Shown here piece by piece: positions 4,742-34,714 of a stretch of 64,000 bases of DNA. Source of the DNA: Patescibacteria group bacterium (GTDB taxonomy: Bacteria; Patescibacteriota; UBA1384; 2-12-FULL-50-11); the NCBI GenBank assembly GCA_038058635.1, contig JBBUAP010000001.1, positions 94,157-158,156 of the forward strand. The letters run 5' to 3'. A program made the position numbers and the translations under genes. The notes below the pieces were generated by a model. That model ran no database searches. It saw only the letters and a program-made list of their open reading frames with translations, and was not told where the DNA came from. How positions within the stretch are numbered: the first letter of the stretch is position 1; every line of letters begins with the position of its first letter.

Positions 4742-4841
4742 ATCCGACCTCCTAACACCTGAGTGTTTCTGGCCGGATCATATCAATAAATCTTCCTCGG
4801 ATCAAGCGTGTCAAATAGAGTTTCGTAGACGAAACTTTCAG

Positions 4842-4928
4842 CGGAAGGGCAGGGATTCGAACCCTGGGACCCCTTACGAGGTCAACACATTAGCAGTGTG
4901 CTCCATTCGGCCACTCTGGCACCCTTCC
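4842..4928 (-). tRNA. tRNA-Ser (anticodon GCT)
   Basis: Reverse complement folds as a class-II tRNA. Acceptor is GGAAGGG/CCCTTCC, anticodon stem GCACA/TGTGT with loop CTGCTAA, a long variable arm, T-arm GGGTTCGAATCCC. No encoded CCA. Confidence 0.85.
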
Positions 4929-6104: not shown

Positions 6105-7532
6105 ATGCCTAAGAATATTCAGTCGGTGATTAAGGGGTACTCTCGTCAGAAAGAAGAAGAGCAGACACGCCTAGTGGCAACCGAGAACAAACTGCCCTAT
6201 ATCAATTTAGTTAACTATCCGTTCACCGGCGATGTCTTGGGCTTTATTCCTGAAGGAACAGCCACCAAATTTTCGGTGATTGCTTTCGAGCGGCTGGGCA
6301 ATATTATTCGGGTCGCCACACCGTTCCCGTTCCGACCCGATCTTGACGAACAGATGAACAAGCTGGGGGAGGACGGCAAGGTCCGTTTCGAGCCGTATTT
6401 CTGCTCCCAGACATCGATTGAATACGCTATCAAGCAGTACGCTAAGCTAGTTCGGCCGGCAGCCGAACGAACTAGGGCCCAGGCCGAGAAAGAGTCGGTT
6501 GGGGACTTCCTAAAGAATGTGGCCAACCTGGAAGAGTTCGGCGGCGCTATCCAAAATGTCAGCACCACCAAATTATTCGAAACCATTCTGTCCGGCGCCG
6601 TGGCCTTTAATGCCTCTGATATCCATTTCGAGCCCCAGGCCGAGTTTATCCGCGTTCGTTTCCGGGTTGATGGTGTCCTTCAAGATGTCGCTTCAGTCAG
6701 CGCCGAGTCGTACCGCCTGCTCAACTCCCGAGTTAAGAATCTTTCCGGCCTCAAGCTAAACAAGAATGCTGGAGCCCAAGATGGCCGGTTCTCAATTGAA
6801 ATAGGTAGTGAAAAAATGGATGTTCGCGTCAGTATTCTCCCCGCCACTTACGGCGAGGTGATTGAGCTGCGTTTGCTGACAGGCAAGGCGTTTCTTTCGC
6901 TCGACCAACTGGGGCTTGATGAGGGTGCAAAGGCGGCAATTCTGCGCGCTATCCAGTTCGATACCGGCATGATTATTGTGACCGGCCCGACTGGCGCCGG
7001 TAAAACGACGACGCTCTACGCCATTCTTAAATCCCTCAATACTCCGGATAAAAAAATAATTACCATCGAAGATCCGGTCGAGTATAAGATTGCCGGTATT
7101 GAACAAATTCAAGTCCAGCCCGATCACGGCTTTGATTTTGCCCAAGCCCTGCGGGCGGTCTTACGCCAAGATCCAAATATTATTTTAGTTGGAGAAATTC
7201 GCGATAAGGAAACGGCCGAGATTGCGATTAACGCTTCCTTAACTGGTCATTTAGTCCTAACTACCCTCCACGCCAACTCCGCTCCAGCGACATTTGCCAG
7301 GCTTATCGAAATGGGCGCTCCGGGTCACTTACTTTCCGACGCCATTCGCCTGATTATTGCCCAAAAATTAGTCAAGCGCCCCGAACCCAAGGAAGGCGAA
7401 CCGGGTCGCATGGTCGTCGCACAATACCTCGAACCAACCGCCGAGTACACCGAGCTAATCAAACAAAAAGCCAGTATCCGCGAGTTCGAGGAACTATTCG
7501 AAAAGCTGGGCGACAAGCTCCCTGGAAGTTGA
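6105..7532 (+). CDS. pilB: GspE/PilB-family secretion/pilus-assembly ATPase
   Basis: Walker A GPTGAGKTTT, the Asp/His boxes typical of T2SS-E/PilB ATPases (IITIEDPVEY...ILVGEIRD...TLHANSA) and a T2SE-Nter-like N-domain. Confidence 0.85.
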   Translation: MPKNIQSVIKGYSRQKEEEQTRLVATENKLPYINLVNYPFTGDVLGFIPEGTATKFSVIAFERLGNIIRVATPFPFRPDLDEQMNKLGEDGKVRFEPYFCSQTSIEYAIKQYAKLVRPAAERTRAQAEKESVGDFLKNVANLEEFGGAIQNVSTTKLFETILSGAVAFNASDIHFEPQAEFIRVRFRVDGVLQDVASVSAESYRLLNSRVKNLSGLKLNKNAGAQDGRFSIEIGSEKMDVRVSILPATYGEVIELRLLTGKAFLSLDQLGLDEGAKAAILRAIQFDTGMIIVTGPTGAGKTTTLYAILKSLNTPDKKIITIEDPVEYKIAGIEQIQVQPDHGFDFAQALRAVLRQDPNIILVGEIRDKETAEIAINASLTGHLVLTTLHANSAPATFARLIEMGAPGHLLSDAIRLIIAQKLVKRPEPKEGEPGRMVVAQYLEPTAEYTELIKQKASIREFEELFEKLGDKLPGS

Positions 7533-7540
7533 CCGCCAGG

Positions 7541-7921
7541 CTACGCTGCGTCGCCAAGATTGCCACCCAGAGTGGCGGCAAAACGAAGGATGAAAAAGGC
7601 TAGGACTACTACGACAATTCCGATAATGGCGTTAAGGATCCCCGTTCGAGCTTTAGTGGCCTTTTCGGAGTCACCGCCAGCGGTAATATAGTTGACGCCA
7701 CTCATTATCAGGTAAACGAAGGCCAAAACAGCCACGACTGCCAGCACCCAGCTCATCGCAAACGATATTACTTCTCCAAAAGTTGCCTTGGCGCTACCGC
7801 TATTTGGCGTTTTGCCAAAGGGCTTGAACATATTAAACCAGTTGTCTGCAAGAGCGCCACCACCACTGTCAAACTGGGCGTAGACTCGGCCGATAAAGAA
7901 ACTATTCAGTTTATCAATCAT
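7541..7921 (-). CDS. VirB2/TrbC-like T4SS pilin-family protein (two-TM), paralog 1
   Basis: 126 aa: a ~45-aa non-hydrophobic N-region, TM1, a loop ITAGGDSEKATKAR, then TM2. Strong SD (AGGAGG) before the start and a -35 TTGACA about 80 nt upstream on the minus strand. Confidence 0.6.
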   Translation of the reverse strand: MIDKLNSFFIGRVYAQFDSGGGALADNWFNMFKPFGKTPNSGSAKATFGEVISFAMSWVLAVVAVLAFVYLIMSGVNYITAGGDSEKATKARTGILNAIIGIVVVVLAFFILRFAATLGGNLGDAA

Positions 7922-8024
7922 TATTCCATCTCCTCCTAATTTAAATTATTCATAATGAGAATCACTACTATATGTACTCATATTTCTAGTTTATTTAGGT
8001 GCTGTCAATAGCCGGCAGGATAAC

Positions 8025-8165
8025 TGTACGACTTCCACGAAGGGATTCCATCCCCTCGTGTATAGTCGGCGGGATTCGCCTCCTAACACTTGCGGATTCA
8101 CCGCTCTCTATACACAGCAGGATACTCTGCTGTGGAAGTCGCGCGATTTTATCGCCGACTATAGC
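8025..8165. ncRNA. Candidate structured RNA or cis-regulatory element between pilin paralogs 1 and 2; strand undetermined
   Basis: Four short GC-rich hairpins sit at 8035-8055, 8065-8077, 8089-8101 and 8111-8130. Two long-range complementary pairs interleave them pseudoknot-style: cgacttccac (8025) with gtggaagtcg (8129), and tatagtcggcg (8059) with cgccgactata (8151). No credible ORF. Confidence 0.3.
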
Positions 8166-8220
8166 GACCAGGTAACGGTCGCTTCAGCAGCGCTATCTCG
8201 CTGTCGATGGCCACCATTCG

Positions 8221-8577
8221 CTAACCGTTATATCCAAGCAAGGCAATGAAGAAGTGAATGATGAAGCGAGAAAGTACTGCGATCGCAAAGCCGATAATGG
8301 CGTATTGGAGAGTTTTCTTGGCGGCAGCGTATTTGGCCTCATCACCAAAGGCGGTGAACATCATATAGCCGGCCTTAATGATGTAGCAGAAGGCAATAAA
8401 GGCGGCGACAGCCGAGAGAATGTCGGTGTAGTGCGCAATACTGTTTGTGAGACAAGACTGCAAGCTTTCTCTCGCTTCAAGAATTTCCTTTCGTAACAGC
8501 GCGTTCTCTGGCGCATCAGGATCGAGAAAGCAATTCGCTAAGAAAAAGTCTTTGAGCGGTTGGCCAAAGATTGTCAT
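8221..8577 (-). CDS. VirB2/TrbC-like pilin-family protein, paralog 2
   Basis: 118 aa with the same architecture (TM1, FTAFGDEAKYAAAKK, TM2). Confidence 0.55.
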   Translation of the reverse strand: MTIFGQPLKDFFLANCFLDPDAPENALLRKEILEARESLQSCLTNSIAHYTDILSAVAAFIAFCYIIKAGYMMFTAFGDEAKYAAAKKTLQYAIIGFAIAVLSRFIIHFFIALLGYNG

Positions 8578-13056: not shown

Positions 13057-13794
13057 CTACTTCTTTCGAACTGTTACCTCAACCCCTTTAGATGGTTTGG
13101 CAACAAATTTTTTGGTTATGTAGGCCTGCTGACCAATCTGGAACAGGGTTGCTGTCGCCCAGTAAAGCGATAGGCCGGCTGGTAGAGTTGAGCCGATAAA
13201 GTACGTCATCGCCGGGAAAAGATACATCATCTGCTTGGTCATCATCGCCGCCGGATCATTTTTAGCCGCCGAGATGGGCGTTAATTTCTGATTGAATCGG
13301 GTTTGGGCAAACTGCAGTAGCGCCGCCAAAACCGGCAGGAAGAAGCGATCTTTGCCGGCAAGATTTATACCTAGGAATTGGGCGTTGACGGCGTCAATAT
13401 GAGGGGTAAAAGAATAAAGCAAGTCTGGCCGGATGTCTTTCAAGCCAGCAATCAACACGAAGTAGAGAATGTAAAGAATTGGTAGTTGGATCAGCATGGG
13501 TAAGCAACCAGCCATTGGGTTGATGCCGTGCTCTTTGTAGTAAGCCATCTGGGCTTTGGCTCTTTCCTGGGGATTGTCGTACTTTTCGTTCAGTTTCTTG
13601 AGTTCGTCCTGGTGACTTCTCATATAGAGCTGGCTCTTGAGCATCTTGCTGTTTGGTACCCAAATAATAGTCCTCACGACAATTGTTAGTAGAATAATCG
13701 CCCAGCCGATACTGTGCCCCGGCACCAACCACGAAAAGAAGACTAGGAGGTTGAAAAGGGGAGTATAGAGAACGGCCTTGAGAAGGGCTTTCAT
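13057..13794 (-). CDS. yidC: Membrane protein insertase YidC (short Oxa1-type)
   Basis: Multi-TM 245-aa protein with YidC-like motifs (GCLPMLIQLPILYILY). Sits in the conserved rpmH-rnpA-yidD-yidC order. Confidence 0.85.
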   Translation of the reverse strand: MKALLKAVLYTPLFNLLVFFSWLVPGHSIGWAIILLTIVVRTIIWVPNSKMLKSQLYMRSHQDELKKLNEKYDNPQERAKAQMAYYKEHGINPMAGCLPMLIQLPILYILYFVLIAGLKDIRPDLLYSFTPHIDAVNAQFLGINLAGKDRFFLPVLAALLQFAQTRFNQKLTPISAAKNDPAAMMTKQMMYLFPAMTYFIGSTLPAGLSLYWATATLFQIGQQAYITKKFVAKPSKGVEVTVRKK

Positions 13795-14057
13795 GAACTG
13801 GGGTTAGCAACTGGCTTTTTGGGGGCTGTCGGTACGGGGTCGTATCCTCCCGCTGTTAAGGGATGGCAGCGAGCGACGCGCTTTGCTCCGAGGGCCAGGC
13901 CTTTTAATACCCCGAAACGCCCAACGGCTTGCTTGGTGTATTCGGAGCAAGTAGGCTGGAAACGACAAACCCCACCCAACACCTTCAGCGGCCCGTGATC
14001 GGGACTTAAGGTTCTCTGGTAAAGGCCGATTAGGCCGACAGCTAGCCGGCGAAACAT
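13791..14057 (-). CDS. yidD: Membrane protein insertion efficiency factor YidD
   Basis: 88 aa with the YidD signature LIGLYQRTLSP...CRFQPTCSEY. Confidence 0.8.
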   Translation of the reverse strand: MFRRLAVGLIGLYQRTLSPDHGPLKVLGGVCRFQPTCSEYTKQAVGRFGVLKGLALGAKRVARCHPLTAGGYDPVPTAPKKPVANPSS

Positions 14058-14392
14058 TTTTCTAAATCTTTCTTAAGTAGTTGCTCGTCGAGGGATTTAC
14101 CCTGAGCGGAGTCGAATGGGATATTCATAACCATCACCACCATATCACTGACCGGTCGATTTTCCCAAACCGCCAGACGGGTCTCTAGGTCGCTGAAAAT
14201 GATGCGGCGAATGCGATTACGCCTGACCGCTCCACCAGCAACCTTACGGCCGATCACGACTGCCGCCCGGCAGTGGATATTAGTGCCGGTCGCCACAAAA
14301 AGAGTTAGAAAATTTCCTCGAACCTTGCGTCCGAGTTTCAAGACCGTCTTGATTTCATCCGAGTTCTTGAGCTTGAACTCGCGCTTTAGCAT
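14042..14392 (-). CDS. rnpA: Ribonuclease P protein component
   Basis: 116-aa basic protein with an RnpA-like RNR motif (RRNRIRR) and conserved position downstream of rpmH. Confidence 0.85.
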   Translation of the reverse strand: MLKREFKLKNSDEIKTVLKLGRKVRGNFLTLFVATGTNIHCRAAVVIGRKVAGGAVRRNRIRRIIFSDLETRLAVWENRPVSDMVVMVMNIPFDSAQGKSLDEQLLKKDLEKCFAG

Positions 14393-14401
14393 TGGAGCTC
14401 G

Positions 14402-14539
14402 CTAGACTGTTAGCTTGGCTCGGCCTTTAGCTCGACGTCTCTTGATGACATTGACGCCGGCAGTAGTACGCATCTTTACCAAAAAACCGTGCGTTTTGGC
14501 CCGGCGACGAGTATTGGGTTGAAAAGTCCTTTTAACCAT
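14402..14539 (-). CDS. rpmH: 50S ribosomal protein L34
   Basis: Reverse-complement translation is [45 protein letters not shown]. Absent from the ORF track because it is under 60 aa. Confidence 0.9.
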
Positions 14540-14724
14540 TCTCTAGATTTTACCTGGTAAAGCCAGAAAAATCTAGAGAGAACCGAGAACTGTGAGTAGC
14601 CGTTCTTAACTTCTAGAAATAAGGGGAAAGGCGAACGCAGCTACTTTACTGATTCCCAATTCTACACAACTAGCGTCGTGCCTGTGGAAAACTTTCGTAA
14701 TTTCTGGTTTGGTAAGTACACATC

Positions 14725-16077
14725 ATGCCCAATCCTGTTTGGACCGACATCTTGAATACTTTAGAGCCGACGATGAGCCGACCGAACTTTGTGACCTGGT
14801 TGGCGTCGACCGATCTAATCGAGGATATCCCCGGCGCTTTAACTATCACCGTTCCCAACCAGTACGCCAAAAGCTGGTTGGAAAATAATCTAATCGGGGA
14901 TATTGAAGCGCTCCTAAAAAAGAGTGTGGAAAACTTTGAGCAAGTCCGGATTGTGGTGGCCAAAAAAAGCTCGGCAACGCTTGACGACCTACCGATACTC
15001 CAGGGTGTCAGCGAAGCTTTGACGGAACCCGAGAGCGACAAGACTCCAAAGACTAACCTCTTCAACCCCAAATACACCTTCGAATCCTTCATCGTCGGCA
15101 ACAACAACCGCTTGGCCTTTGCCGCCGCCCAAGCCGTCGCCGATAAACCTGGCGAGGCCTACAATCCGCTCTTTATTTACGGTGGGGTTGGCCTGGGGAA
15201 AACTCACTTGATGCAGGCGATCGCCAACGCCATCGTCCAGCACAGCCCGAAGAAAAAGATTGCCTATGTCTCTTGCGAAACCTTTGCCAGCGAATTTATT
15301 GAAGCCCTCCAAAACAAGGCCATCAACGAGTTTAAACGTAAGTATCGCTCGGCTGATATCTTTTTGGTTGATGATATTCAGTTCTTAGCCAATAAGGAGG
15401 GGACCCAAGAGGAGTTTTTTCACACTTTTAATACCCTTCACCAGGCTAATCGTCAGATTGTGATGACGGCCGACCGAATGCCAAAAGAAATCGGCGATTT
15501 GGAAGATCGACTAATATCGCGCATCGGTTGGGGAATGGTGGCTGATATCCAGACCCCGAACTTTGAAAACCGAGTGGCGATCCTGCAGGCCAAGGCCGCC
15601 GCGATGAACTTTACTGTTGGGTCGGACATTTTAGAGTATATCGCCAACACTATAACCGCTAATATCCGCGAACTTGAAGGGTCGCTCACTAAACTAGCGA
15701 CGACCGCCACAGTGGAGAAGAAAGCGGTGACGATTGAGCTAACAAAAGCAGTGCTGAAAGACCTGGCTCGCCCTAATAGTCGACGATTCACGACCAAGCA
15801 GGTTATTCGGGCTGTCGCCGATCACTTCGCGATCGAGCCGAGCGACCTAATGGGTCAAAAGAGGGTTCAGGAGATCGTCTACCCCCGTCAGATCGTGATG
15901 TATATTCTTCGGTACTCGTTGGGACATTCCCACCCCCAGATCGGAGACGAACTGGGCGGTAAAGACCACACTACGATTATGCATGGGGTAAAGAAGATTG
16001 AGCGCTTACTAAAATCTGATCGTCAGGTTGAGCGCGATTTGGCTGATGTTAAGCAACTTCTAGAGGGTGGTTCCTAA
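14725..16077 (+). CDS. dnaA: Chromosomal replication initiator DnaA
   Basis: AAA+ Walker A GGVGLGKTHL and a C-terminal DnaA box-binding domain. Divergent from rpmH. Confidence 0.95.
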   Translation: MPNPVWTDILNTLEPTMSRPNFVTWLASTDLIEDIPGALTITVPNQYAKSWLENNLIGDIEALLKKSVENFEQVRIVVAKKSSATLDDLPILQGVSEALTEPESDKTPKTNLFNPKYTFESFIVGNNNRLAFAAAQAVADKPGEAYNPLFIYGGVGLGKTHLMQAIANAIVQHSPKKKIAYVSCETFASEFIEALQNKAINEFKRKYRSADIFLVDDIQFLANKEGTQEEFFHTFNTLHQANRQIVMTADRMPKEIGDLEDRLISRIGWGMVADIQTPNFENRVAILQAKAAAMNFTVGSDILEYIANTITANIRELEGSLTKLATTATVEKKAVTIELTKAVLKDLARPNSRRFTTKQVIRAVADHFAIEPSDLMGQKRVQEIVYPRQIVMYILRYSLGHSHPQIGDELGGKDHTTIMHGVKKIERLLKSDRQVERDLADVKQLLEGGS

Positions 16078-16084
16078 AGTGGAA

Positions 16085-16307
16085 AACATGTGGACAACTC
16101 TAATGGGAGGGGTGGTAGTATTAGGTCGATATTCTTGGTACAACAGGTTAAGCCGTTCATCCACAATCAAAACCCAACTTATCCACAGTTTATCCAAACA
16201 TTTCCACAGCCCTACCCCTAATTACCCACTAATCCACCGCACTTACAACTACTACTAATTATGGAAACTAAAAAATTAATTACTAAAAAACACCCAATAA
16301 AATAAAC
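16085..16307. promoter_or_regulatory. oriC candidate: a DnaA-box cluster plus an AT-rich unwinding element between dnaA and dnaN
   Basis: One perfect TTATCCACA at 16179-16187. Near-consensus boxes are TGTGGACAA (16090), TCATCCACA (16157), TTATCCAAA (16190), ATTTCCACA (about 16199) and TAATCCACC (16230). An AT-rich run follows at 16255-16307. Confidence 0.7.
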
Positions 16308-17396
16308 ATGATATTTAATACTGAAAAAGAAAAACTTCTCAACGCTGTGAGTTTAACTAGTAGTTTAGCCACTACTCGTTCAACCCTACCAATCCTTCAA
16401 AATATCTTTTTAGAAGTTAAAAGTACTCAACTACTAATTAAATCAACCGATCTTGACCAGACGCTAGAAGTGTTGGTGGATGGCATGGTTAGTGACAAAG
16501 GAGCTCTAACTATCCCAGCTCGCCTAATAGTGGAGTACTTAAACAATAATCCTGACGCCAGCATTACCCTAGACTCGAATGATTTAGACTTAACTATCAA
16601 ATCAACCAATCACCAAGCGAAAATAAAGGGGCTAGCGGCCGAGGAGTATCCATCAACACCGGCTATCAAACCACAATCAACTGTGACACTACCGCTCGGA
16701 CAGCTACAGTCCGCAATTACTAAAACTATTTTTGCCAGCGCCACAGATGATAGTCGGCCGATACTCAACGGTCTGTTATGGCGCTTTAACGGGAAGAAAC
16801 TGACGATTGTTGGTACGGACGGCTATCGCCTAGCTTGCCAGTCGTTCGAGGTTCCAAACGAGGCTGAGGGTGACTTTATTATCCCCAAAAGAGCGCTCCA
16901 ACAATTACTAAAATTGCCTGGCGATGGCGAATTGGAAGTGGCCTTTGCCAGTAACCAGGTTCGTTTTTCAATTGGTTTGATTACCTTAACTTCTCGCCTC
17001 CTAGATGGTAATTTCCCGCCGTATGAGGCGATTATTCCTAAAAAGATGTCGACCGAGATCGCTATCAACTCTCACCAACTAGCAAAAAGCTTAAAGTTGG
17101 CTAGCCTATTTTCTCGTGACTCGGCTTATAGCGCCAAGATATTGCTCGAGGGCGACACGATGAAGATTAGCGCCGTTTCGGCGACTATCGGCGAGAATAC
17201 TAACGAATTAAAATTGGCTTCTCCGGTGGTAGTACCGTTGACGATATCCTTAAACGCCCAGTACCTAATTGATGGATTGGGAGCGGTCGAGGGCGATGCC
17301 AAGGTCGGTTTTATCGATGCCAAAAGCCCGATCACAGTGGCGCCAATTAAGGATAGCGAGTACCTTTACCTTCTGATGCCGCTTCGGAGTGAGTAA
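16308..17396 (+). CDS. dnaN: DNA polymerase III beta sliding clamp
   Basis: 362 aa in the standard position after dnaA, with the three-domain beta-clamp size. Confidence 0.88.
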   Translation: MIFNTEKEKLLNAVSLTSSLATTRSTLPILQNIFLEVKSTQLLIKSTDLDQTLEVLVDGMVSDKGALTIPARLIVEYLNNNPDASITLDSNDLDLTIKSTNHQAKIKGLAAEEYPSTPAIKPQSTVTLPLGQLQSAITKTIFASATDDSRPILNGLLWRFNGKKLTIVGTDGYRLACQSFEVPNEAEGDFIIPKRALQQLLKLPGDGELEVAFASNQVRFSIGLITLTSRLLDGNFPPYEAIIPKKMSTEIAINSHQLAKSLKLASLFSRDSAYSAKILLEGDTMKISAVSATIGENTNELKLASPVVVPLTISLNAQYLIDGLGAVEGDAKVGFIDAKSPITVAPIKDSEYLYLLMPLRSE

Positions 17397-18925: not shown

Positions 18926-19513
18926 CTAGAATACTTCGCCACTCTCTTCAATTGGAATAGTATCCGGAACTTTCTTGCTCCTTAACCAAGTCTTAATTGC
19001 GTCGAGAATGAAATCATGCTCTGCCTTGACGCTGGCTGGATCGTCCGGCGAAGAGAAGCGATAGTTTATCGTAGCGACTATTTTGACAATTTGTTTACCT
19101 TCAGCTGTATCGCCGACCTCGGCCCGTAAGCGATAATCACCATTTTGATACGGGAATAAAGAGAGATAAGGAACTTCCTGACTATTGTCGACGCTAGACT
19201 GGAGTCTTAAGCTGACGATCAAAATAGTTTTCTCCCCGTTCTTAAGATTAACTTCCTTAACAAGGCGTTCAGAATCTAAGCCCCAAACGGTAATATTTTG
19301 TTTTCCAGGACGAGTAATGATGGTAGAGGGTAACGGGTGAACGGTTTGATCTTTTTCTTTGCCCAGAGTTGCGACGACCTCTCTAGTAACCTCACTGGCT
19401 GGATCAAGCTTAATCTCTAGAGATGCTGTCCCTGAGGATGAATAAATAATAAAGCCAATTATTCCCAATAATATTACCACCGCTACGACTATAATGATTC
19501 GTCGCCTATTCAT
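18926..19513 (-). CDS. Hypothetical membrane-anchored protein; last gene of the T4SS-like block
   Basis: 195 aa with an N-terminal TM anchor (IIIVVAVVILLGIIGFIIY) and a soluble domain. No recognisable motifs. Confidence 0.5.
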   Translation of the reverse strand: MNRRRIIIVVAVVILLGIIGFIIYSSSGTASLEIKLDPASEVTREVVATLGKEKDQTVHPLPSTIITRPGKQNITVWGLDSERLVKEVNLKNGEKTILIVSLRLQSSVDNSQEVPYLSLFPYQNGDYRLRAEVGDTAEGKQIVKIVATINYRFSSPDDPASVKAEHDFILDAIKTWLRSKKVPDTIPIEESGEVF

Positions 19514-19517
19514 AGCT

Positions 19518-20234
19518 TCATTTTACAGTATTGACCGCCTCTGAAGCTGAACCGGTTTCGCAAGTTACTTGGTCTGGGACTAGAAGCTTAATAACATCGA
19601 GGCGCTTGTAGTACGGATTACCGTAGTTTGTATGCTTGTAGTTTCTATCCCAGCGTTGACCGCTCTCGTTGTACTGAATCGTCATTGCTTCGGCGTAGTG
19701 GTAAAACAATCGGGTGATAACATTTGCCCCCTTCGGAGTTGTGTAAGCTCCCTTGACGGCAATAGCGTTTTCTAGCGGACGCCAAACGTTAGCTAATTGG
19801 TATGGCCAGCCGCCGGCCTTGGCCGCCGCCGTTCTCCCGCTACTATAATGCTCGTACCCAAAAGCATCGTCTGGATTACCAAACTCTTGCTCACCCCACC
19901 ACACACCAATTATGACAGCTGGATTAAGGCCCCGTTTTTGCCCTTCGGTTAGAATATCTAAAATATTTGACTTGACTCTAGCAGCCCGAGGACCATACCT
20001 GGAGTTCTTGACTAGGGTAGCAATTACTTTTTCGGGATCGTCGGCAATCGAGGTGTCGGTAAAATACTTGTCTTCCAAATAGCAGCCAGTACCGTAACTG
20101 GGACCACTGGCGCCTGTTGGCTTATCGAGTTTTGGTAATTGGCCGAAGACGGCGTAGTAGACTATCGCAAACGAGAAGAAAATTAACGCTAGGATGGCAA
20201 TGATGATGGCGATAACCGCATTGCCATTACGCAT
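19518..20234 (-). CDS. Hypothetical membrane-anchored extracytoplasmic protein, possibly a cell-wall-active enzyme
   Basis: N-terminal TM anchor, then a soluble domain rich in Trp/Tyr/Gly (GVWWGEQEFGN). A function as a wall-active enzyme is inferred from context only. Confidence 0.45.
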   Translation of the reverse strand: MRNGNAVIAIIIAILALIFFSFAIVYYAVFGQLPKLDKPTGASGPSYGTGCYLEDKYFTDTSIADDPEKVIATLVKNSRYGPRAARVKSNILDILTEGQKRGLNPAVIIGVWWGEQEFGNPDDAFGYEHYSSGRTAAAKAGGWPYQLANVWRPLENAIAVKGAYTTPKGANVITRLFYHYAEAMTIQYNESGQRWDRNYKHTNYGNPYYKRLDVIKLLVPDQVTCETGSASEAVNTVK

Positions 20235-23200
20235 TAGAAGATTCCTCCAAAACCAACATGAACCCAATCGGTCGTTTTGGTGGACTTTTGGGAGAAACCG
20301 AGGCCGATTGTGTCGCTGTCAAGAGACCAGTCGCCGAAGGCGTCAACCATTCTGGGCTCGAAGAACTCGGCATTGGCCTGACGGTAGGTCAGCACCTGGA
20401 GCGGTTTGAAAGGCGATTCTCTCTGTTCGCCGTAAGCAAGCGTGGCATCGAGGAGTTTGCCGACATAGTAGCGCGACCAACCCATCCAGATTTTTTGGTT
20501 GTCGCCTTTGGTGAACGGTTGGGTGTCATCCCAATCGAACGGGTTTTGCCCGGGGCTGGGCGAACTCCGAATTTGGCTGATATCAGCCGGCAACTGATCG
20601 TATGGGACACCAAAATCAAACTGATCAGCGGCTGAGTCATATTCGCTGACACCGTAAAGCTCCTGCGGTGGCATTGGGCAGAGATACTCAACCTTATAGA
20701 CCCCAAACATGTAGATGGCGACGGCGATGTAGATACCGGTCGGGCCAAGCCCCAGGGCGTTGGCAATAAATCCTGTCACTAAAGCCTGCACGGTTCCGGG
20801 AGGGGCGGCGATCGCTTCGTCGGCCGAACCGAAAAACGCTTGACACTCCTTACAGGCACTTAACCCGAGCTCTATGGCAAACATAATCAATGCTGCCCGA
20901 GCGGCCGAAACATTGCTTCTAGCGTTAGTGACGGATAGCGCCCCTTCTTTACCAGCCTTGGCCGCAGTTAAAGCTTTCTGGGCGCCGGAGATGGTGGTGT
21001 AGAGTTTGTAGGCCTGATAAACCTTACCGGCCGGTAAGCCAAACTTTTTGTCACCCCACGAGCTTAAGCGGCTAATCAGAAAATCTTTACCTAAGTTGTC
21101 CAGCGACTCGACAAGAGTAATCTTTCCGGTCGCATCTTTCAGGTCTTTGGCAGTATTCCAGTTATTAACAGCCGCAAAGTAAAGCGATTTAGCTAGACCG
21201 CTCGGCAAACTACCGATATTGAGATTATCGTCTAACCAGTTGTCGAAGAAGCCCCACATCGCTCCGTATTTGTCGTTATTAGTAAAGAAGTCGCCCTGAC
21301 CCCGAGTCCGAGCGAATTGGTAGAAGCTACTGACAAAGGCGGTTGAGAATGATCCAAACGAGACACCCGACTGGCCAATGAGATTGAGAACAATTCGATC
21401 GGTTGTGGCTGGATCGATCTCACCTTCGTAGAGGGCTTTGAGCATGCCAGGCACATACAGCGGCGACAGTCGAACTAGCTCGGTATCGAGTTTGCCGAAA
21501 GCAAAATTCTGCAAGAGGGCACCGCGTTCGGCGGTCGTACCACTAAACATTGTTCGCGAAAACCCAACCGGAATAGACGAGTCGATCTTGCGCAGGAGCG
21601 AGTCGGACATGCGATACTCAATATTCTTCTGGGCCTCTTCCATTAGCTGTCCTCGGGCCTCTTTGTAGTCGGCAGCTGCCTGCTCTTCCGACTCACTGCT
21701 TATTACCCCAGCTTCGGCGTTATTCTCCGCTATCCTAGCGTAGATAACATCAGGGTTATCCATAATCAAGGCCCTCCTCATCTCGGCGTAAGTAAATTGG
21801 TCATTGGCCGGCATGAACTGGTTTATTTGCGGCAAAAGGGCAGCAAATGAAGTAGCGGCGATCGCTAGCCGCCAATCCCCAGTAATAAAGGCCTCGGCAT
21901 CGGTCCGAAACTCGATCGGGATACCGGTGGCCCGCAAGAAAAAGTCGCCAACACCATTCGAGACCCGGACATAGCTTTGCAGATTAGGGTCTGTTTCTAG
22001 CCGTTGTAGTTGGTATTTTTGTTCGGCAGTTAGTTTGTCTGGGCTAATAAGTTTTAACCGAGCGTACTCTTGGCGTTGGCGCTCTAACAGTTCCTGTTCC
22101 TCGGTCGTGCCAGTACGATTGTAGAGACCCTTAACTTGCTCGGCCAAGCGTTCAAAATCTTCAAAGTTATAGCCGTCCAAATTGACACCGATTGATTGTC
22201 CGACCATGCGCAGACCCTGATCGAGGAGCAAGTTAGCGCCGGTGCCAGTGCCGGGAGCAATAATATATTGCAGGAAAGAATCTTTACTAAAGTTGGCCTT
22301 GCCGTCAACCGACCGACCCATTAAGCGGTTGATTACCGCGACACCGGTTTCAATCTCCTCTAGTGTTTGATCGTCACCGCCCTTAATTACCTTAATCAAG
22401 GCATTAATTTCGGTGGAACTAAGCTTGAACTGGTCGCTAATGCCAAAATAGTCATAGATTTTATCGGCCGTAAAACCTTCGAGTGAACCTTGAGTGGCCT
22501 TGGTTGCTAGTTGTTTGGTACTAATTTTGTCCTGGAGATAAGAGGCAACGGTGCCAATTGGTGTCCCGAGGGCGATATCGAGCGACCGCCAACCAGTAGT
22601 ATTGGTCTCATCTGCCCAGAAAGTTTCATCACCCATCAACTCGGTTAATGTTTGGCTACTGTTGAGGTGGAAAATTCGATAACCCTGGCTCGGGTCGATC
22701 CCGTTGGCGCCGTAAAAGAGAGTTCGGGCCGAATCATTAGCCCGTAGTTTTTCTTGTGAAATGCCGAGTCGTTCGGCCAAAACGGCGTAGCCGTAGTTTT
22801 CTGGAATATTGCCTTTAAGCGAGACATTTTGATCTTTCAGTCCCAAGGTGGTACTGACATAGTTGGCGAAGATCTCCTGGGTGGCGTCGGCCAGCTTTTT
22901 ATCGCCGTTGATCACAGCAAAAGTACTGCCGGCGTTCCAACCGAAGGCCTTGTCCACCTGGACGCCGCCTAATTTCTCGGCCAGAATTAGGTTTTTGCCG
23001 TCAAATAAGCTCGATAAATCGGCGGGGATAATTTGGGAAGAGGGGTCCTTGATACTGTATTCCTTATTGATAAAAGCGGCGATCTCAGGGCCGTGTTTGT
23101 TAACGAAACTCTTGATATCAACCTTGCCCTTGCTCAGGTTATTGTCGTCAACGCCGATCTGGACGCCCATTGTCGAGGCGCCAACAGTATTAGTAACATC

Positions 23201-24775
23201 GCCAAGCTTAACTTCCTTTTTAGGGTTAAGGAGGTCGTCTAATATCGGCTTGGTTAAGCCGGAATACTTACCTTTCACAGCTTTCTTGGCAGCTTCCCGA
23301 ACCATCGCCAGCCCGAAAGTCTTTAAAGAATCTTGGGACTCCTTCTGCTTCTTGGGGTCGGCTGAGAACATATTCTTCAAATCTTCGGTGCCGATGGTGT
23401 TGCCGGTCGGGGCGCCGTCGAGCTTAACTTCGCTCGGAGTCTTCTTCTCGGTAACGGCTTTCTCAAGCAGGGCCTTTTGGTCGCTCGGCAACTTGAGGGC
23501 GTCGGAAAGAACATTCACCCCAGCCATCTTCAGACCCTTGGCGTCTTTCTTCTTCAAGGTATCAACGGTGCCGATCATTAAGTTCAAGCCATCGTCCGAG
23601 CGGCCGAATTTGTCTAAAACGGCTCTGATCGTCTCACTATTCATTGCGTCGTCGAGGGTGTGCTTGTCGAAGTAGCCGTTGGGAATGCCGAGCGATGTTT
23701 CCAGGTGTCGCTTGCCGGTCGCCTCTAAGATGTTGTCCCAGCCGTAGCCCCGCAAACTACCAGCGGGAAGATTCAATCCTTGCTCAACCCGACTCTTGGC
23801 GAAAGCGACTCGGGCGTCCTCATCGTAGTCGCCGGTGGCAATGCCCGTTGGCAAGCCCGGTAGCGATCGTTCCAGGACGGCGCCGCCGAGGGTGTGAAGT
23901 AGGCCGTCGGCCAACGGGTCGCTCAAGACTTGGTTGACGCCGAAGGTTTTTAAGTAAATATTAGCGCCGACATAGCTGACGATAGTTTTTAGGTCCATCC
24001 CTTTGACATACTCGATGTAATAATCCATCTCCCCCGATTGATTTAGGTAAGCGGCAATACTTTGAGCGCCCATTTCGCCGGAAGCGCCCAAAATACTCTG
24101 GGCAGTCGGGGTGGGATTACTCTTAACACCCTCGACGCTCTGCCAAGCGACTTTGACTGGCATGGGCTTTTGCCACCGAGTTGTGGAGCCGCCGATGTGG
24201 CGTTTCTCGACCAACTTACAGACAACTGAACCAACCTCCGAAATATCGAGAGCCTGGCCGCGGTTATGGCCGGAAACAATATCACCTTCGTCAGTAATCG
24301 CCTGGGTGCCCTCACGGTCGAACCTACCAGCGCCTTCAGAAGTGTAGTTTTTCAAAATCCGATTGACTTTAATATGATCAAAACCGTAGCCGCCTTGCTC
24401 AACCGGTAAGACTAGCTGTAGCAGGTAATCAGTCGTTCGAATATCGACCTTACCATCTTTGAGTTGATTTATATCGTCGGGAGAAATCTCCAAATTGCCT
24501 TCGATTTCATTGATAGCTTGCAGGTCGTAAGTACTCTGAACCTGGAATTGGCCTGGCTCAGCAGTTGGTTCATCGGGTGAAATCCAGTCAGAAGGGTAAT
24601 AATCCGTTTCTGGATAGGTTGCTACATCAACCTCTGTCAAATCTTCCTCTTGCTTATCTGTTTGGGCATAAGCACGGGGTAGAGGCCCCATGCTGAAACC
24701 GGCGGCCACCATCGGTTGGAGAATAATTATCATGGTAGAGAGAAGGATCTTTAGTCTAAATCCGGGGCTTCTCAT
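20234..24775 (-). CDS. Giant secreted/surface protein (1513 aa) within the T4SS-like block
   Basis: Uninterrupted 4.5-kb ORF with an N-terminal signal peptide (MIIILQPMVAAGFSMGPLPRAYAQ) and a hydrophobic segment near the C-terminus. Translationally coupled to its neighbours. Confidence 0.7.
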   Translation of the reverse strand: MRSPGFRLKILLSTMIIILQPMVAAGFSMGPLPRAYAQTDKQEEDLTEVDVATYPETDYYPSDWISPDEPTAEPGQFQVQSTYDLQAINEIEGNLEISPDDINQLKDGKVDIRTTDYLLQLVLPVEQGGYGFDHIKVNRILKNYTSEGAGRFDREGTQAITDEGDIVSGHNRGQALDISEVGSVVCKLVEKRHIGGSTTRWQKPMPVKVAWQSVEGVKSNPTPTAQSILGASGEMGAQSIAAYLNQSGEMDYYIEYVKGMDLKTIVSYVGANIYLKTFGVNQVLSDPLADGLLHTLGGAVLERSLPGLPTGIATGDYDEDARVAFAKSRVEQGLNLPAGSLRGYGWDNILEATGKRHLETSLGIPNGYFDKHTLDDAMNSETIRAVLDKFGRSDDGLNLMIGTVDTLKKKDAKGLKMAGVNVLSDALKLPSDQKALLEKAVTEKKTPSEVKLDGAPTGNTIGTEDLKNMFSADPKKQKESQDSLKTFGLAMVREAAKKAVKGKYSGLTKPILDDLLNPKKEVKLGDVTNTVGASTMGVQIGVDDNNLSKGKVDIKSFVNKHGPEIAAFINKEYSIKDPSSQIIPADLSSLFDGKNLILAEKLGGVQVDKAFGWNAGSTFAVINGDKKLADATQEIFANYVSTTLGLKDQNVSLKGNIPENYGYAVLAERLGISQEKLRANDSARTLFYGANGIDPSQGYRIFHLNSSQTLTELMGDETFWADETNTTGWRSLDIALGTPIGTVASYLQDKISTKQLATKATQGSLEGFTADKIYDYFGISDQFKLSSTEINALIKVIKGGDDQTLEEIETGVAVINRLMGRSVDGKANFSKDSFLQYIIAPGTGTGANLLLDQGLRMVGQSIGVNLDGYNFEDFERLAEQVKGLYNRTGTTEEQELLERQRQEYARLKLISPDKLTAEQKYQLQRLETDPNLQSYVRVSNGVGDFFLRATGIPIEFRTDAEAFITGDWRLAIAATSFAALLPQINQFMPANDQFTYAEMRRALIMDNPDVIYARIAENNAEAGVISSESEEQAAADYKEARGQLMEEAQKNIEYRMSDSLLRKIDSSIPVGFSRTMFSGTTAERGALLQNFAFGKLDTELVRLSPLYVPGMLKALYEGEIDPATTDRIVLNLIGQSGVSFGSFSTAFVSSFYQFARTRGQGDFFTNNDKYGAMWGFFDNWLDDNLNIGSLPSGLAKSLYFAAVNNWNTAKDLKDATGKITLVESLDNLGKDFLISRLSSWGDKKFGLPAGKVYQAYKLYTTISGAQKALTAAKAGKEGALSVTNARSNVSAARAALIMFAIELGLSACKECQAFFGSADEAIAAPPGTVQALVTGFIANALGLGPTGIYIAVAIYMFGVYKVEYLCPMPPQELYGVSEYDSAADQFDFGVPYDQLPADISQIRSSPSPGQNPFDWDDTQPFTKGDNQKIWMGWSRYYVGKLLDATLAYGEQRESPFKPLQVLTYRQANAEFFEPRMVDAFGDWSLDSDTIGLGFSQKSTKTTDWVHVGFGGIF

Positions 24776-26106
24776 AAGTCACTTCCATATCTTTTGGCAC
24801 CATTGAAGACAATACAACTACTTCGGCTTGCAGCCCCCCGCCTTCTTATTTGTGGCGGTGGAGTTCCGTCCTTCCCACCGGAGCTATTATCAATTGCTTC
24901 ATCTCCTCCGATGTAAAATCCGATATGATCAAATAGAACCGAACCTCCCTTAGAGCAGCTACCGTCCCCCCAGAATATAATATCACCAACCTGAAGCTTG
25001 CTCTTATTCTGGTTGTAGTAACCGGCACTTTTAATGTCCGGACGACTAACAACTATCTTATAAAATGGTCGTCTCCAAATGCCATCAACACCGGCTTCGA
25101 TTGGATTAGGTATGCCTGCGTTCTGCAAGACCGTTGAAACGAAAGAGGCGCAGGCAACTCGACCGCCGGCCTTAGTGATGGTACAAAAATTACCACTTGC
25201 CTGACCGACTTGATCTTTGGCCTCTTTGGCGATCCATTCTCCAAACGGTAAAGTTGAGTCCAGCGCTTGAATTTTACTTATCGCCTCCCCAAGCTGTTTC
25301 TTTTTCGCTTCTCCGGATAAGTTGATCCCCGATTCGATGGTTAATAGAATCTCCTTAACTTTTAACCTGACTTCCGCGACCCGTTCGGGTTTTGTTGCCC
25401 CAACATTTTTAAGCACAAAGTCATAACGCTCTTTCTCGGTCGCCAAAACTTTTTCGGTAACTTTCCGTCCCGAAAGGACGAAATCTCCTCCAATTGATGC
25501 CACCAGAGTTGTCTGATCGGTCTGCGCTTGAGTAGTCGGATACTGCGGGCTGCCCTTACCGCCGAGCAAGCCAAGAGGGATGGCGATGAGTAATAGTAGT
25601 CCGGCGATGATACACACAATCCAAGTCCAGAACTTTTTGTTAGTCAGCAACTTTTTAATATCTAATGCGATTAGAACTTCGCCTAAAATCGGAATTAGCC
25701 GGGCACCGAGCTTGCCACCGACCTTCAAACCGGCCCTTCCTACATCTTCGGCAAGTTCTTTCCCGACACCTTTGGCAACTGGCTGGCCGGCACCACTAAG
25801 AGGGGGAACTTTCTTGAGATTTTTAGCCCCTTCGATACCCGGCTCTATCATCCCGGCCTTATCGGCACTGCGGGCGCCGAGTTTTCCTTTGACCTTACCG
25901 TAAGTCCCTTTAGCGTTATCGAACTGACTTTTTAGGCCTCGCCTCCGACCGATGACATTTTGCTGCGGAGCTCCCTGTTGGTCATCTGGCAGCCCGGGTT
26001 CGGTCGGCGGTCCGTCGTAACCCAAATCGCTTAACAGGTCGCGATCGGGATCAAACCCGTCTGGTTGGACCTCTGGTAATTGCTCTGGATAAAGTACTTC
26101 TGGCAT
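24772..26106 (-). CDS. Membrane-anchored NlpC/P60- or CHAP-like cell-wall hydrolase, a functional analogue of VirB1/PrgK/TcpG
   Basis: C-terminal domain has a Cys...His papain-like arrangement (GNFCTITKAGGRVACASFVSTVLQNAG ... GDIIFWGD ... FDHIGFYIGG). A central TM segment and a Pro/Gly-rich N-region. Confidence 0.6.
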   Translation of the reverse strand: MPEVLYPEQLPEVQPDGFDPDRDLLSDLGYDGPPTEPGLPDDQQGAPQQNVIGRRRGLKSQFDNAKGTYGKVKGKLGARSADKAGMIEPGIEGAKNLKKVPPLSGAGQPVAKGVGKELAEDVGRAGLKVGGKLGARLIPILGEVLIALDIKKLLTNKKFWTWIVCIIAGLLLLIAIPLGLLGGKGSPQYPTTQAQTDQTTLVASIGGDFVLSGRKVTEKVLATEKERYDFVLKNVGATKPERVAEVRLKVKEILLTIESGINLSGEAKKKQLGEAISKIQALDSTLPFGEWIAKEAKDQVGQASGNFCTITKAGGRVACASFVSTVLQNAGIPNPIEAGVDGIWRRPFYKIVVSRPDIKSAGYYNQNKSKLQVGDIIFWGDGSCSKGGSVLFDHIGFYIGGDEAIDNSSGGKDGTPPPQIRRRGAASRSSCIVFNGAKRYGSDL

Positions 26107-26185
26107 TTATTTAGTAATTTTGTAACTTCGAGTGAAGTGAGAAGCGAGTGTTAGTGACATTCAGTAATTTCGTAATTTTTCTCCA

Positions 26186-28873
26186 CTACGCTTCTTGCCC
26201 GAACATACTTAAAATCTGCTCGGGATTGGTGGTGATGAACTGATCTTCTGTGTACGAGGCGATGATTTGGATTGCCGCCCGATCTACTCCAGCAACAAGT
26301 AATCCCTGACCAACATCGGCTGTTTGCAAGAACTGCTTTTCGCCGTCGGTCAGTTTGAAAACCGAAGCCAATTTATCAACCGCGGTTGGCGATTGACCGA
26401 GCAACAACTGGGTGGCGGAGTTGGAAACAATCGCCTTGCCGTAGGCGTTGTCGATAAAGTCCTCAACATCTTGACTGATGACGGTGACACCCAGGAAGTA
26501 CTTGCGAGCTCGCTTGGTCATCGCGTTTAAGAATTTGGCGGTGTCTTCAAAACGCATCATCCACCAGGCCTCGTCGATAATTAGTAATCGTTTTTTCAAT
26601 TGACCCTTGACCCGAGCCCAGATGTAATTCAAAACCAAATACATCGCTAGCGGTCGCAACTCGTCTTCCATATTGCGAATCGAAAAAACAGTAAACTTGT
26701 TGGTTAGGTCAATGTTGGTCGGTGAATCGAACAAGTTAGAGAATGAACCCTCACTGAATTTGACGAGCCGGTTAACCAACTGTTCCGCCCCAGTCATATT
26801 CGATAAGACGCTGACTAAATCGGCCAACAGCGGTGGCGGATTATTTTGAGTGGCTGGATCGATCGAGATGTCCTTCATAGCGTAGGTTTCATAGAGGGCT
26901 TTGTCGAGCAAGGCGTCTTCCTCGGCGTTCAAACCTGCAGCCATCAAACTAATCAAACCATGTAAACCAGCAATGGTGGTGCGCAAAACATCTTCACCGG
27001 CTTCAGCCGAATCAGCTGAGACATATTTCGGTAGGTCGAACGGGTTAATCTTCTGGGCGGAGTTGAGCGAGATGTCGATGTAGGTGCCACCGATAGTTTG
27101 CGACAGAGTTTCGTACTCCCGTTCTGGGTCGACGACGATTACTTCAGCACCGAGCATCAGCGTTCGCAAGGCCTCAAGCTTAACGGCGTAAGATTTACCG
27201 GAGCCGGATTTAGCAAAGACAACCTGGTTGGCATTCTCCATTTGGAAGCGATCGAACAGCACCAGCGAGCTGTTGTGCAAATTGATGCCGTACAAAACGC
27301 CGTCGTGATGCGACAAATCCTGGCTGGAGAAGGGGAAGGTGGTCGAGAGCGAGTCGGTGTCAAGGTTGCGGACAATCTGGAGCTCGTCGTAGGCCAAAGG
27401 CATCGTCGTCGAGAAACCCTCCTCCATTTGCAACAAGGCCGGCTTGGAGTAAACCAGCATCCCGCCGAGCGTCGTCTCGATTTGTTTGGTGAGCGTTTGC
27501 AAATCTTCCGGAGTCTTAGCGTAGATAGTGAAGTAAAGCGAGTACTGAAAGAGACGAGTCTCACCTTTCTGGAGGGTGTCCCGCAGCTCTTCAACATCGC
27601 CGATGGCTGTTTCTAGCTCGGGGTTACGAACCAAGCCCTTCTCTTGCTCAATTTGCAAGCTTGATTGCAACTGGGTTGTCTTGCGGCGCAACTGGTTCAT
27701 CACCAACGCCGATTCGAGCGGGTAGATAAACATCGAAACATCGATGGTGGCGTCAAAGTTGTAAATTGGGCTCAACCAGCCGGAGTACAGATAGCGCGGA
27801 TAGGTAAAGACGAACATCGTCCGGGCGTAGAACGAGCCGATCTGTAGATAACTTGGGCTAATCGCCATACCGGCCGGCGCGATAATATCAAGGACATCGG
27901 CCAGGCCTTTTTTGAAGATATCCATCTCGGTGTCGGCCGCTGATTTAGCATCTTTGGGATTGATCGAAGCCATAATTTCACTCAAGGATTTTTTCTTGGT
28001 CGTCACCGGCGCGATATCAGCACTTAGTGGCGCGCCTGGAGGTGGGGTTTCCTTAGTCGGGGGTAAAACTGACGGCATCTCTTTGGTTGGCGCCAGCTCG
28101 CCAGCTTGAGCGGCTTTAATGACATCGGTGACGACATTAGTGACCTGGTCGTCGTTCGGGCCTTTTTTGATGACCGAGCCGGTCAGCTGTTCGATATCCT
28201 CGATGTGCTGGGTTGTCGATTCCTCGGGGTTGTAGGTGTTGTAATAGAGCTCGATCAGCTCGGCCGAGCCGAGTTTTTTGGCCTGAATGCCGAGCGATTC
28301 TAGCCGGCCGGTGACGATCTGGGTTTTTTCTTCCAGCTGAGCCCTCAGCGCTTCGAACTCTTGGACGGTGTAAACGGTCTCCTTGTTTTTCTTGCCGCCG
28401 AGCAATTTGTCCATCCAGGTTTGTTTAGTGGTCGAAACGCCGGGATTTTTGTTGTGGGGGACGATGACGAAGTACGACCGATCCATAATATTGACCTCGG
28501 CCGAGAGGCGTTGGATAAAGTCGATGTAATCGGAAATCTGAACCTTAATCAGTTCGTTGGTTTCGTCAACGCCGATGGCCTGGAGCTTGGCGATGTAGCG
28601 ACTCAAATCAACCCTGCGACCCTGAATAACAATCTGGAAAGGAAATTTGAGGGCGTTCAAGAAACTACGATACTGATAGATAACGGCGTCTTGCTCTTTT
28701 TGGCTTCGCAGCTCGATTGAAACCGGCTTAACTTTAACGACTTGTCTGATTGAGCCGTCGTTCAAGACGACAACATCGTCGCGTATCTCCGAAATCGCCA
28801 CATACTGTTGGGTCGACGAAGGATTCGATTTACTGCCACCAGGTTTTTTTCGCGCTACTTTTTTGTCAAACAT
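26186..28873 (-). CDS. virB4: VirB4/TrbE/CagE-family type IV secretion ATPase
   Basis: Walker A FAKSGSGKSY, Walker B LLIIDEAWWMM, a VirB4-like N-terminal domain and a size of 895 aa. Confidence 0.9.
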   Translation of the reverse strand: MFDKKVARKKPGGSKSNPSSTQQYVAISEIRDDVVVLNDGSIRQVVKVKPVSIELRSQKEQDAVIYQYRSFLNALKFPFQIVIQGRRVDLSRYIAKLQAIGVDETNELIKVQISDYIDFIQRLSAEVNIMDRSYFVIVPHNKNPGVSTTKQTWMDKLLGGKKNKETVYTVQEFEALRAQLEEKTQIVTGRLESLGIQAKKLGSAELIELYYNTYNPEESTTQHIEDIEQLTGSVIKKGPNDDQVTNVVTDVIKAAQAGELAPTKEMPSVLPPTKETPPPGAPLSADIAPVTTKKKSLSEIMASINPKDAKSAADTEMDIFKKGLADVLDIIAPAGMAISPSYLQIGSFYARTMFVFTYPRYLYSGWLSPIYNFDATIDVSMFIYPLESALVMNQLRRKTTQLQSSLQIEQEKGLVRNPELETAIGDVEELRDTLQKGETRLFQYSLYFTIYAKTPEDLQTLTKQIETTLGGMLVYSKPALLQMEEGFSTTMPLAYDELQIVRNLDTDSLSTTFPFSSQDLSHHDGVLYGINLHNSSLVLFDRFQMENANQVVFAKSGSGKSYAVKLEALRTLMLGAEVIVVDPEREYETLSQTIGGTYIDISLNSAQKINPFDLPKYVSADSAEAGEDVLRTTIAGLHGLISLMAAGLNAEEDALLDKALYETYAMKDISIDPATQNNPPPLLADLVSVLSNMTGAEQLVNRLVKFSEGSFSNLFDSPTNIDLTNKFTVFSIRNMEDELRPLAMYLVLNYIWARVKGQLKKRLLIIDEAWWMMRFEDTAKFLNAMTKRARKYFLGVTVISQDVEDFIDNAYGKAIVSNSATQLLLGQSPTAVDKLASVFKLTDGEKQFLQTADVGQGLLVAGVDRAAIQIIASYTEDQFITTNPEQILSMFGQEA

Positions 28874-29303: not shown

Positions 29304-29432
29304 TTTAACTTCCAGTCTTTCTCCCTCCCTAAAAACAGTTTAGCAAAGTAATCTTGCGGAATATACTCGTCGGGACGCCTCGTTAGCTCGTAGCTAAGTC
29401 AGCTACTTGCTATAGATTCATGATTCAAGAAT

Positions 29433-30374: not shown

Positions 30375-30379
30375 AGTTA

Positions 30380-34576: not shown

Positions 34577-34631
34577 CTACGGCGCAACAAACCCAACACA
34601 TATTAAGAAAAAATCATCTAAGGCTTCTAGG

Positions 34632-34714
34632 CGACTGATGACAACATTGTCATCAGTCGCAAACCCAACCCAAGTGAATATTATGGACAGATTATGGGTT
34701 TAAACCCATAATCT
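34632..34714. promoter_or_regulatory. Two perfect palindromes in the divergent intergenic region between the VirB6-like gene and a lipoprotein gene
   Basis: cgactgatgacaa-ca-ttgtcatcagtcg at 34632-34659 (13-bp arms). agattatgggttt|aaacccataatct at 34689-34714 (13-bp arms, no spacer). Confidence 0.4.

Follow-up and report, generated by a model that had tools for sequence, protein, structure and literature searches.

Between the genes of pilin 2 and pilin 1 of this Candidate Phyla Radiation (CPR) bacterium from groundwater metagenomes lies a block of 153 nt that is, in our judgement, probably a small non-coding palindromic (foldback) insertion of the MITE-like type. It occupies positions 8012-8164 of the 64-kb stretch of DNA analysed here (the window; Table 1). 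We favour this reading because the block is short and non-coding, has inverted repeats at its ends and a target duplication, is present in one species and absent in others, and lies in intergenic DNA next to a promoter. The initial annotation had seen in the same hairpins a candidate RNA pseudoknot or riboregulator, a reading that is not supported by the results given below.

Hardly any small non-autonomous mobile elements have been described from the reduced genomes of CPR bacteria, and a full-text search for MITE together with CPR found nothing relevant. A clean insertion with a known empty site, placed right beside the -35 box of the pilin-cluster promoter that is most conserved, is a useful worked example, to which the unrelated structured inserts of other species in this gap contribute, and it shows how CPR genomes acquire structured intergenic DNA. 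It also warns against taking every striking hairpin cluster for a riboregulator. Its practical value stays modest as long as neither more copies nor an effect on expression are shown.

Locus and comparison set

The NCBI MAG GCA_964366935.1 also contains the DNA of the window, as do Logan and ENA assemblies made independently; the records carry the labels Berkelbacteria, Saccharibacteria or Patescibacteria. The block was compared across ten orthologous pilin-2/pilin-1 gaps from other Berkelbacteria-like CPR species. Three of these gaps (L004, L005 and L006) were located through the neighbouring ATPase gene, and seven (L014, L018, L019, L020, L021, L022 and L023) through homologues of pilin 1.

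Table 1. Coordinates of the insert, of the gap that holds it, of the neighbouring genes and of the structured inserts of two relatives (window positions, unless another sequence is named)
Feature	Position	Strand	Length	Sequence or remark
PilB/GspE-type ATPase gene	6105-7532			convergent to the pilin genes
Pilin 1 (PF18895, T4SS_pilin family)	7541-7921	minus		downstream of the gap
Intergenic gap pilin 2/pilin 1	7922-8220
Shine-Dalgarno of pilin 1	7937-7930	minus		AGGAGGAG; start codon 7921-7919
Promoter-like site of pilin 1	7980-8008	minus		TTGACA 8008-8003, 17-nt spacer, AAATAT 7985-7980
Inserted block	8012-8164		153 nt	absent from relatives; boundary slides by up to 5 nt (8008-8160 to 8013-8165)
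Direct duplication, left copy	8008-8012			ATAGC; T8008 doubles as first base of the minus-strand -35 hexamer
Direct duplication, right copy	8161-8165			ATAGC
Left terminal inverted-repeat arm	8008-8038			ATAGCCGGCAGGATAA..CGACTTCCAC
Right terminal inverted-repeat arm	8132-8164			GTGGAAGTCG..TTATCGCCGACTATAG; the other strand reads CTATAGTCGGCGATAAAA..CGACTTCCAC
Small hairpin within right arm	8143-8155			GCGAT-TTT-ATCGC
Hairpin H1	8039-8057			GAAGGGAT-TCC-ATCCCCTC, one A/C mismatch; adjoins left arm
Central self-complementary segment	8058-8115			closed by GTGTATAG (8058-8065) with CTATACAC (8108-8115); contains H2 and H3
Internal third copy of terminal motif	8061-8071			TATAGTCGGCG; pairs 11/11 with right terminus 8153-8163
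Hairpin H2	8068-8080			GGCG-GGATT-CGCC; inside central segment
Hairpin H3	8092-8104			GCGG-ATTCA-CCGC; inside central segment
Hairpin H4	8113-8134			CACAGCAG-GATACT-CTGCTGTG; adjoins right arm, mirror of H1
Long-range pair 1	8029-8038 with 8132-8141			CGACTTCCAC with GTGGAAGTCG, 10/10
Long-range pair 2	8061-8071 with 8153-8163			TATAGTCGGCG with CGCCGACTATA, 11/11
Native conserved block	8165-8220	minus		downstream of the stop codon of pilin 2; outside the insertion
Dyad H5	8164-8182			GCGACC-N7-GGTCGC; native block
Dyad H6	8188-8203			CAGCG-N6-CGCTG; native block
Pilin 2 (PF18895, T4SS_pilin family)	8221-8577	minus		upstream of the gap
Foldback insert of L021	L021:1008-1147		~140 nt	arms CCCCGCACTWAACA.. 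(GCCCCGCACTAAACAACTGA / TCAACTGTTAAGTGCGGGGC); fold z -2.1; adjoins the same -35 box
Structured gap of L023	L023:906-1200		295 nt	JGI contig; fold z -2.3

Presence and absence of the block

The block is missing from all ten orthologous gaps and is specific to the species of the window. Three relatives (L004, L014 and L018) keep the exact empty site, GGTCGCTAT/TGACAGC, with both flanking blocks directly joined in the sequence gctgtcaATAGCgaccaggtaa and with ATAGC in a single copy. At the same site the window reads gctgtcaATAGC (cggcagg ... gccgactATAGC) gaccaggtaa, where the parentheses enclose the insert. The other seven gaps that lack the block are those of L005, L006, L019, L020, L021, L022 and L023. 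The alignment of the gap in relatives, from which the initial annotation had expected to learn whether its element is conserved, gave a plain answer: 0/10 gaps contain it, and three show the precise site where it is lacking.

The pilin-1 proteins of the window and of its sister L014 are 87% identical, and either is ~70% identical to that of L018. Given these relationships, a single gain in the window lineage accounts for the distribution; otherwise the same deletion must have happened twice. Three independent assemblies of the window species (L001-L003; an NCBI MAG and two Logan runs) carry the block with 100% identity, so an assembly artefact was ruled out.

Anatomy of the insert

The boundary of the insert slides because ATAGC is repeated at both junctions. 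Besides, the length of the target duplication is ambiguous (0-5 nt), since CTATAG is palindromic and the duplication therefore overlaps the termini of the repeats. The two arms are imperfect and ~31-33 nt long, with 26 identical positions in a global alignment of the left arm against the reverse complement of the right one. The element as a whole aligns over its full length with its own reverse complement (nhmmer, E=3.7e-4). With inverted arms that each have their own hairpin (H1 and H4) around a self-complementary centre, the element forms a single DNA palindrome to which all four hairpins belong.

A scripted check recovered every feature of the multi-hairpin anatomy described in the initial annotation, at coordinates that had been given 2-4 nt too low. 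After this correction the two long-range complementarities do cross each other, with 10/10 and 11/11 pairs, as had been proposed. The hairpins and inverted repeats are far beyond chance: of 2000 shuffled versions of the gap with dinucleotides preserved, 3% showed one perfect inverted repeat of ≥10 bp, and two separate ones never occurred together. The crossing arises because the terminal motif TAGYCGGC is present three times: at the left end, internally at 8061-8071 and inverted at the right end. The right terminus is matched better by the internal copy (11/11) than by the true left terminus.

The 19 nt of the element that adjoin the -35 box are identical at 14/19 positions to the native sequence formerly there. 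Such a match is unusual for a random insertion and hints at a site-specific or recombinational origin.

We suggest that the MITE-like element entered the window lineage after the split from its nearest sampled relative. It would have inserted between the conserved upstream dyad block and the -35 box, duplicating 5 nt of target (ATAGC). A transposase that recognises TAGYCGGC..GATAA termini, encoded elsewhere or lost, may have moved it in trans. Read-through from pilin-2 would yield an RNA foldback of ~-75 kcal/mol, and, once transcribed, this foldback could serve as an RNase III substrate or processing site, as a 3' barrier or as an insulator.

Comparison with known elements and search for further copies

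Prokaryotic MITEs are small, carry terminal inverted repeats and a target duplication, lie in intergenic or promoter-proximal DNA and can be present in as few as one copy per genome (PMC10969869, PMC2649163). The insert resembles them in its size (153 nt, under the ~500 bp of MITEs), its lack of coding capacity, its inverted-repeat ends, its short junction duplication (ambiguous at 0-5 nt), its intergenic and promoter-proximal site, the long foldback that it would form if transcribed, and its presence or absence at orthologous sites of related genomes. It differs in being a single copy within the window, the flank and the related loci, in having no partner IS or transposase in the window, and in a duplication that overlaps the palindromic terminus.

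In BLAST and nhmmer searches of the 64-kb window, ~11 kb of extra flank and the related loci, the element matched only itself and its own reverse complement. Collections of plasmids and phages gave no match to it, and no transposase or integrase gene was found within the window. JGI metagenomes –a collection that probably lacks this groundwater species– were scanned with the pattern TATAGTCGGCG-N66-96-CGCCGACTATA and returned four matches, none related to the element and none with internal similarity to it. One of them (L010) is an artefact in which the whole contig is a palindrome, in another (L012) the left match is the coding end of a protein, and the remaining two (L011 and L013) are unrelated palindromes. 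In viral contigs, the pattern of the inner arms, CGACTTCCAC-N80-110-GTGGAAGTCG, matched twice, both times by chance inside actinophage genes.

Two of these JGI contigs deserve a remark of their own. Ga0137408_1455567 (L010) is a perfect palindrome about its centre, probably produced by assembly or amplification. L013 holds at positions 700-900 a GC-rich palindromic island with several TATAG motifs in very AT-rich DNA, which recalls mobile GC clusters.

Yeast mitochondrial G+C-rich clusters are mobile palindromes that are reported to insert at (T)AG and to occur singly or in tandem arrays. They are like the insert in being GC-rich palindromic mini-elements in an AT-richer context; however, they are much shorter and belong to a eukaryotic organelle, so the likeness is an analogy only.

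The head sequence of REP units is GTAG. Like the REP, BIME and REPIN elements mobilised by RAYT transposases (PMC3116915, PMC3337134), the insert has short GC-rich hairpins that each follow a short conserved head –here (T)ATAG–, in direct and inverted orientation and within a larger intergenic hairpin. REPs are, however, present in tens to hundreds per genome, whereas a search of the 64-kb window for REP-like units (TATAG and a hairpin with a GGAT loop) found no further unit. With no Y1-transposase domain or RAYT-like gene in the window either, a REP or REPIN assignment was rejected for this stretch. A degenerate CRISPR array was also discarded: the period is ~50 nt, the repeats are 64-77% identical and there are no cas genes.

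Among described elements, the insert looks most like the Correia repeat enclosed elements of Neisseria, whose common size class is 153-157 bp and whose termini read TATAG[CT]GGATTAA(C/A)A.. (PMC2649163). Both have termini that begin with TATAG (here TATAGTCGGCG / ATAGCCGGCAGGATAA) and a TA-containing target, and both often lie just upstream of genes. They differ in the sequence after TATAG (the termini here are TATAGTCGGCGATAA and ATAGCCGGCAGGATAA) and in the host phylum, with an IHF site and an outward promoter as traits of the Correia elements. Local alignment to a Correia sequence scored no higher than alignment to shuffles. Membership of the Correia family was rejected, TATAG being the only part of the terminal repeat that is shared, and we class the element as MITE-like instead. 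Transcribed Correia and ERIC foldbacks act as a processing site, 3' barrier or insulator (PMC10969869).

The pilin-1 promoter and the native flanking block

On the minus strand, the end of the element directly adjoins a -35 box, TTGACA. The stretch from -35 to -10 and the region of the Shine-Dalgarno and start codon are nearly invariant in 11/11 species, among which the pilin-1 proteins are 51-87% identical. Because of this conservation across species we take the TTGACA/AAATAT site to be the putative pilin-1 promoter; a simple consensus promoter scan did not flag it. The initial annotation was correct in placing its element upstream of the predicted pilin-1 promoter, as the insert abuts the -35 box. 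The insertion keeps the core promoter intact and shifts the conserved dyad block 153 bp away from it.

This native block, with the dyads H5 and H6, is 93-94% identical to its counterparts in L014 and L004, compared with 77-84% for the flanking genes, and is also present in L018. The H5/H6 module itself measures 46 nt, lies between 12-nt direct repeats (GCTATYGACAGC) and is found in 4/11 species only. It may serve as an operator, or else form the 3' end of the mRNA of pilin 2.

Several further details of this region were noted. The 12-nt direct repeat GCTATYGACAGC of the 46-nt module duplicates the -35 box. The non-coding stretch 7922-8011 is unusually conserved, reading on the minus strand TTGACAGCA..AATAAACTAGAAATATGA..ACATA..GGAGGAGATGGAA..ATG. 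Within the 5' leader of pilin 1, a 33-nt indel (7938-7970) lies between ACATA and the Shine-Dalgarno and forms an ATGAG/CTCAT stem with the transcript start. The window, L004, L014 and L006 have it, whereas L005, L018, L019, L020, L021 and L022 lack it, a patchy distribution that differs from that of the 46-nt module.

Coding capacity and folding

The initial annotation had found no credible ORF in the gap, and this holds: six-frame translations of the element had no match among 5.8 billion proteins, and a HMMER search with one open frame of the element against 1.84 billion representatives returned only spurious matches to repeat proteins. The Rfam scan that it had proposed gave nothing relevant. 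Over the whole window at the gathering score, Rfam reported three tRNAs and no other family, and over 7850-8300 at E<=10 it gave two matches only, both at chance level (SNORD65 and PinT). A tRNA-like or Y-RNA-like gene was rejected, ARAGORN and Rfam both being negative. Elsewhere in the window, ARAGORN calls a tRNA-Ser(gct) at 4841-4928 where the Rfam tRNA model is silent at the gathering score, while the same model reports the other three tRNAs.

Folded as RNA, the whole gap reaches -105.4 kcal/mol on the plus strand (z -6.7) and -111.3 kcal/mol on the minus strand (z -6.0); the element alone reaches -70.1 kcal/mol (z -8.3) and -74.6 kcal/mol (z -7.6), respectively. In the minimum-free-energy folds of both strands, arm pairs with arm and the four hairpins stand in a multiloop. 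The near-equal folding of the two strands follows from the palindromic DNA; an RNA specific to one strand would not be expected to show it. When the crossing 11-bp helix is imposed, the structure is less stable than the nested fold by 9.4 kcal/mol (plus strand) or 10.5 kcal/mol (minus strand).

Alternative origins and functions

A functional RNA read from one strand, be it a riboregulator with a pseudoknot or alternative folds, a 3'-UTR element or an sRNA, would agree with the very stable predicted structure, with the recurring GGAUU/GAAUCC loop motifs and with two mismatches that become G-U pairs on the minus (gene) strand, making it 4.5 kcal/mol more stable. We nevertheless consider it very unlikely: none of the ten related species has the element, Rfam has no match, the fold is symmetric between strands, the crossing helix is ~10 kcal/mol worse than the nested fold, and all copies are identical, so there is no covariation to read. 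The initial annotation had itself named a lack of conservation in relatives as grounds against its proposal, and that lack is what was found. Its pseudoknot or switch is not supported, in view of the absence from relatives, the equal folding of the strands and the energy cost of a crossing that three motif copies explain. The 3'-UTR element, sRNA or protein-binding array that it had also offered can hardly be conserved functions of a sequence found in 0/10 relatives, three of them with an empty site. A regulatory device at the DNA level –a switch that inverts like fimS, or several protein-binding sites arrayed upstream of the pilin promoter– appears even less probable, to the point of being remote. 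Its position immediately upstream of that promoter, the bounding inverted repeats and five occurrences of the motif GGATWM would suit such a device, and Correia elements have been reported to invert (PMC10969869); however, the promoter lies intact outside the element, no recombinase gene is nearby, all three assemblies have one orientation and the relatives do without the element.

The gap has received other structured DNA as well. L021 (Berkelbacteria MAG GCA_024653705.1) and L023 have inserts there, the latter with a direct repeat of TTTGAGGATATAACCC and inverted repeats CCCCCGACT..AGTCGGGGG and GATCTACC..GGTAGATC, and neither shares sequence similarity with the other or with the window element. 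These three structured inserts, together with the 33-nt indel and the 46-nt module, indicate that hairpin-forming DNA has entered the gap again and again. A compact genome may have few places that tolerate insertions, this gap among them, or else structure at this place may be of benefit. Against a purely mobile reading, the inserts of L021 and L023 could mean selection for structure besides transposition. The structure might then be a selected insulator, terminator or 3'-end stabiliser between pilin-2 and the strong pilin-1 promoter, acquired repeatedly. Unrelated structured inserts in three lineages, two of them directly adjoining the -35 box, speak for this, as does the known role of MITEs as terminators or RNase targets (PMC10969869), and an insulator role could be compatible with a MITE origin, as an exaptation. 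Still, 7/10 other species have no such insert, five of these with ~10-20 nt from the stop codon to the -35 box; the stem has no U-tract behind it, a terminator scan found nothing at this place, and the structures of L021 and L023 surpass shuffled sequences only weakly. We regard repeated selection as unlikely, although it is the rival to which we give most weight. Slightly lower stands the idea that the block is an array of ~50-nt modules, each with an ATAG-type core and two hairpins, grown locally or imported by recombination. A site-specific (REP/RAYT-like or recombinase-like) process would attach new modules at the ATAG core, or modules would be exchanged with a paralogous promoter region. 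Cores at 8007-8011, 8060-8065, 8108-8113, 8159-8164 and 8206-8211 are spaced 47-53 nt apart, the native 46-nt module with its GCTATYGACAGC repeats exists in 4/11 species, and the end of the element matches the displaced native sequence at 14/19 positions. The similarity between units is weak, however: 14/22 is expected by chance in a 360-nt region (binomial estimate) and only one pair, at 17/22, stands out. The modules also diverge far more than the native module does between species (93-94%), so they are not a recent tandem duplication. Direct repeats leave the 10-bp and 26-position complementarity of the arms unexplained, and the window has no dispersed units in its 64 kb and no Y1 or RAYT gene. 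The ~50-nt regularity is only weakly significant by our estimate, but it keeps a site-specific or modular-accretion origin alive. The most far-reaching version, which we hold to be decidedly improbable, is that the gap would be a dedicated landing or accretion site for undescribed ~50-nt modular elements in CPR, with hairpins after a (T)ATAG core, inserted at that core in a site-specific, REP/RAYT-like or recombinase-like manner, whose palindromic arrays would insulate or tune the major pilin.

Genomic neighbourhood

The pilin cluster lies ~6.5 kb from dnaA. The neighbourhood of the replication origin (13057-17396) comprises yidC, yidD and rnpA on the minus strand, followed by dnaA (14725-16077) and dnaN (16308-17396). 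Further along, a cluster resembling a T4SS (18926-35674) includes a VirB4/TraC-like ATPase (26186-28873) and a PrgI-family protein (28866-29303). The ORFs around it have no Pfam match, and two of them are giant, coding for 1513 aa (20234-24775) and 1398 aa (30380-34576).
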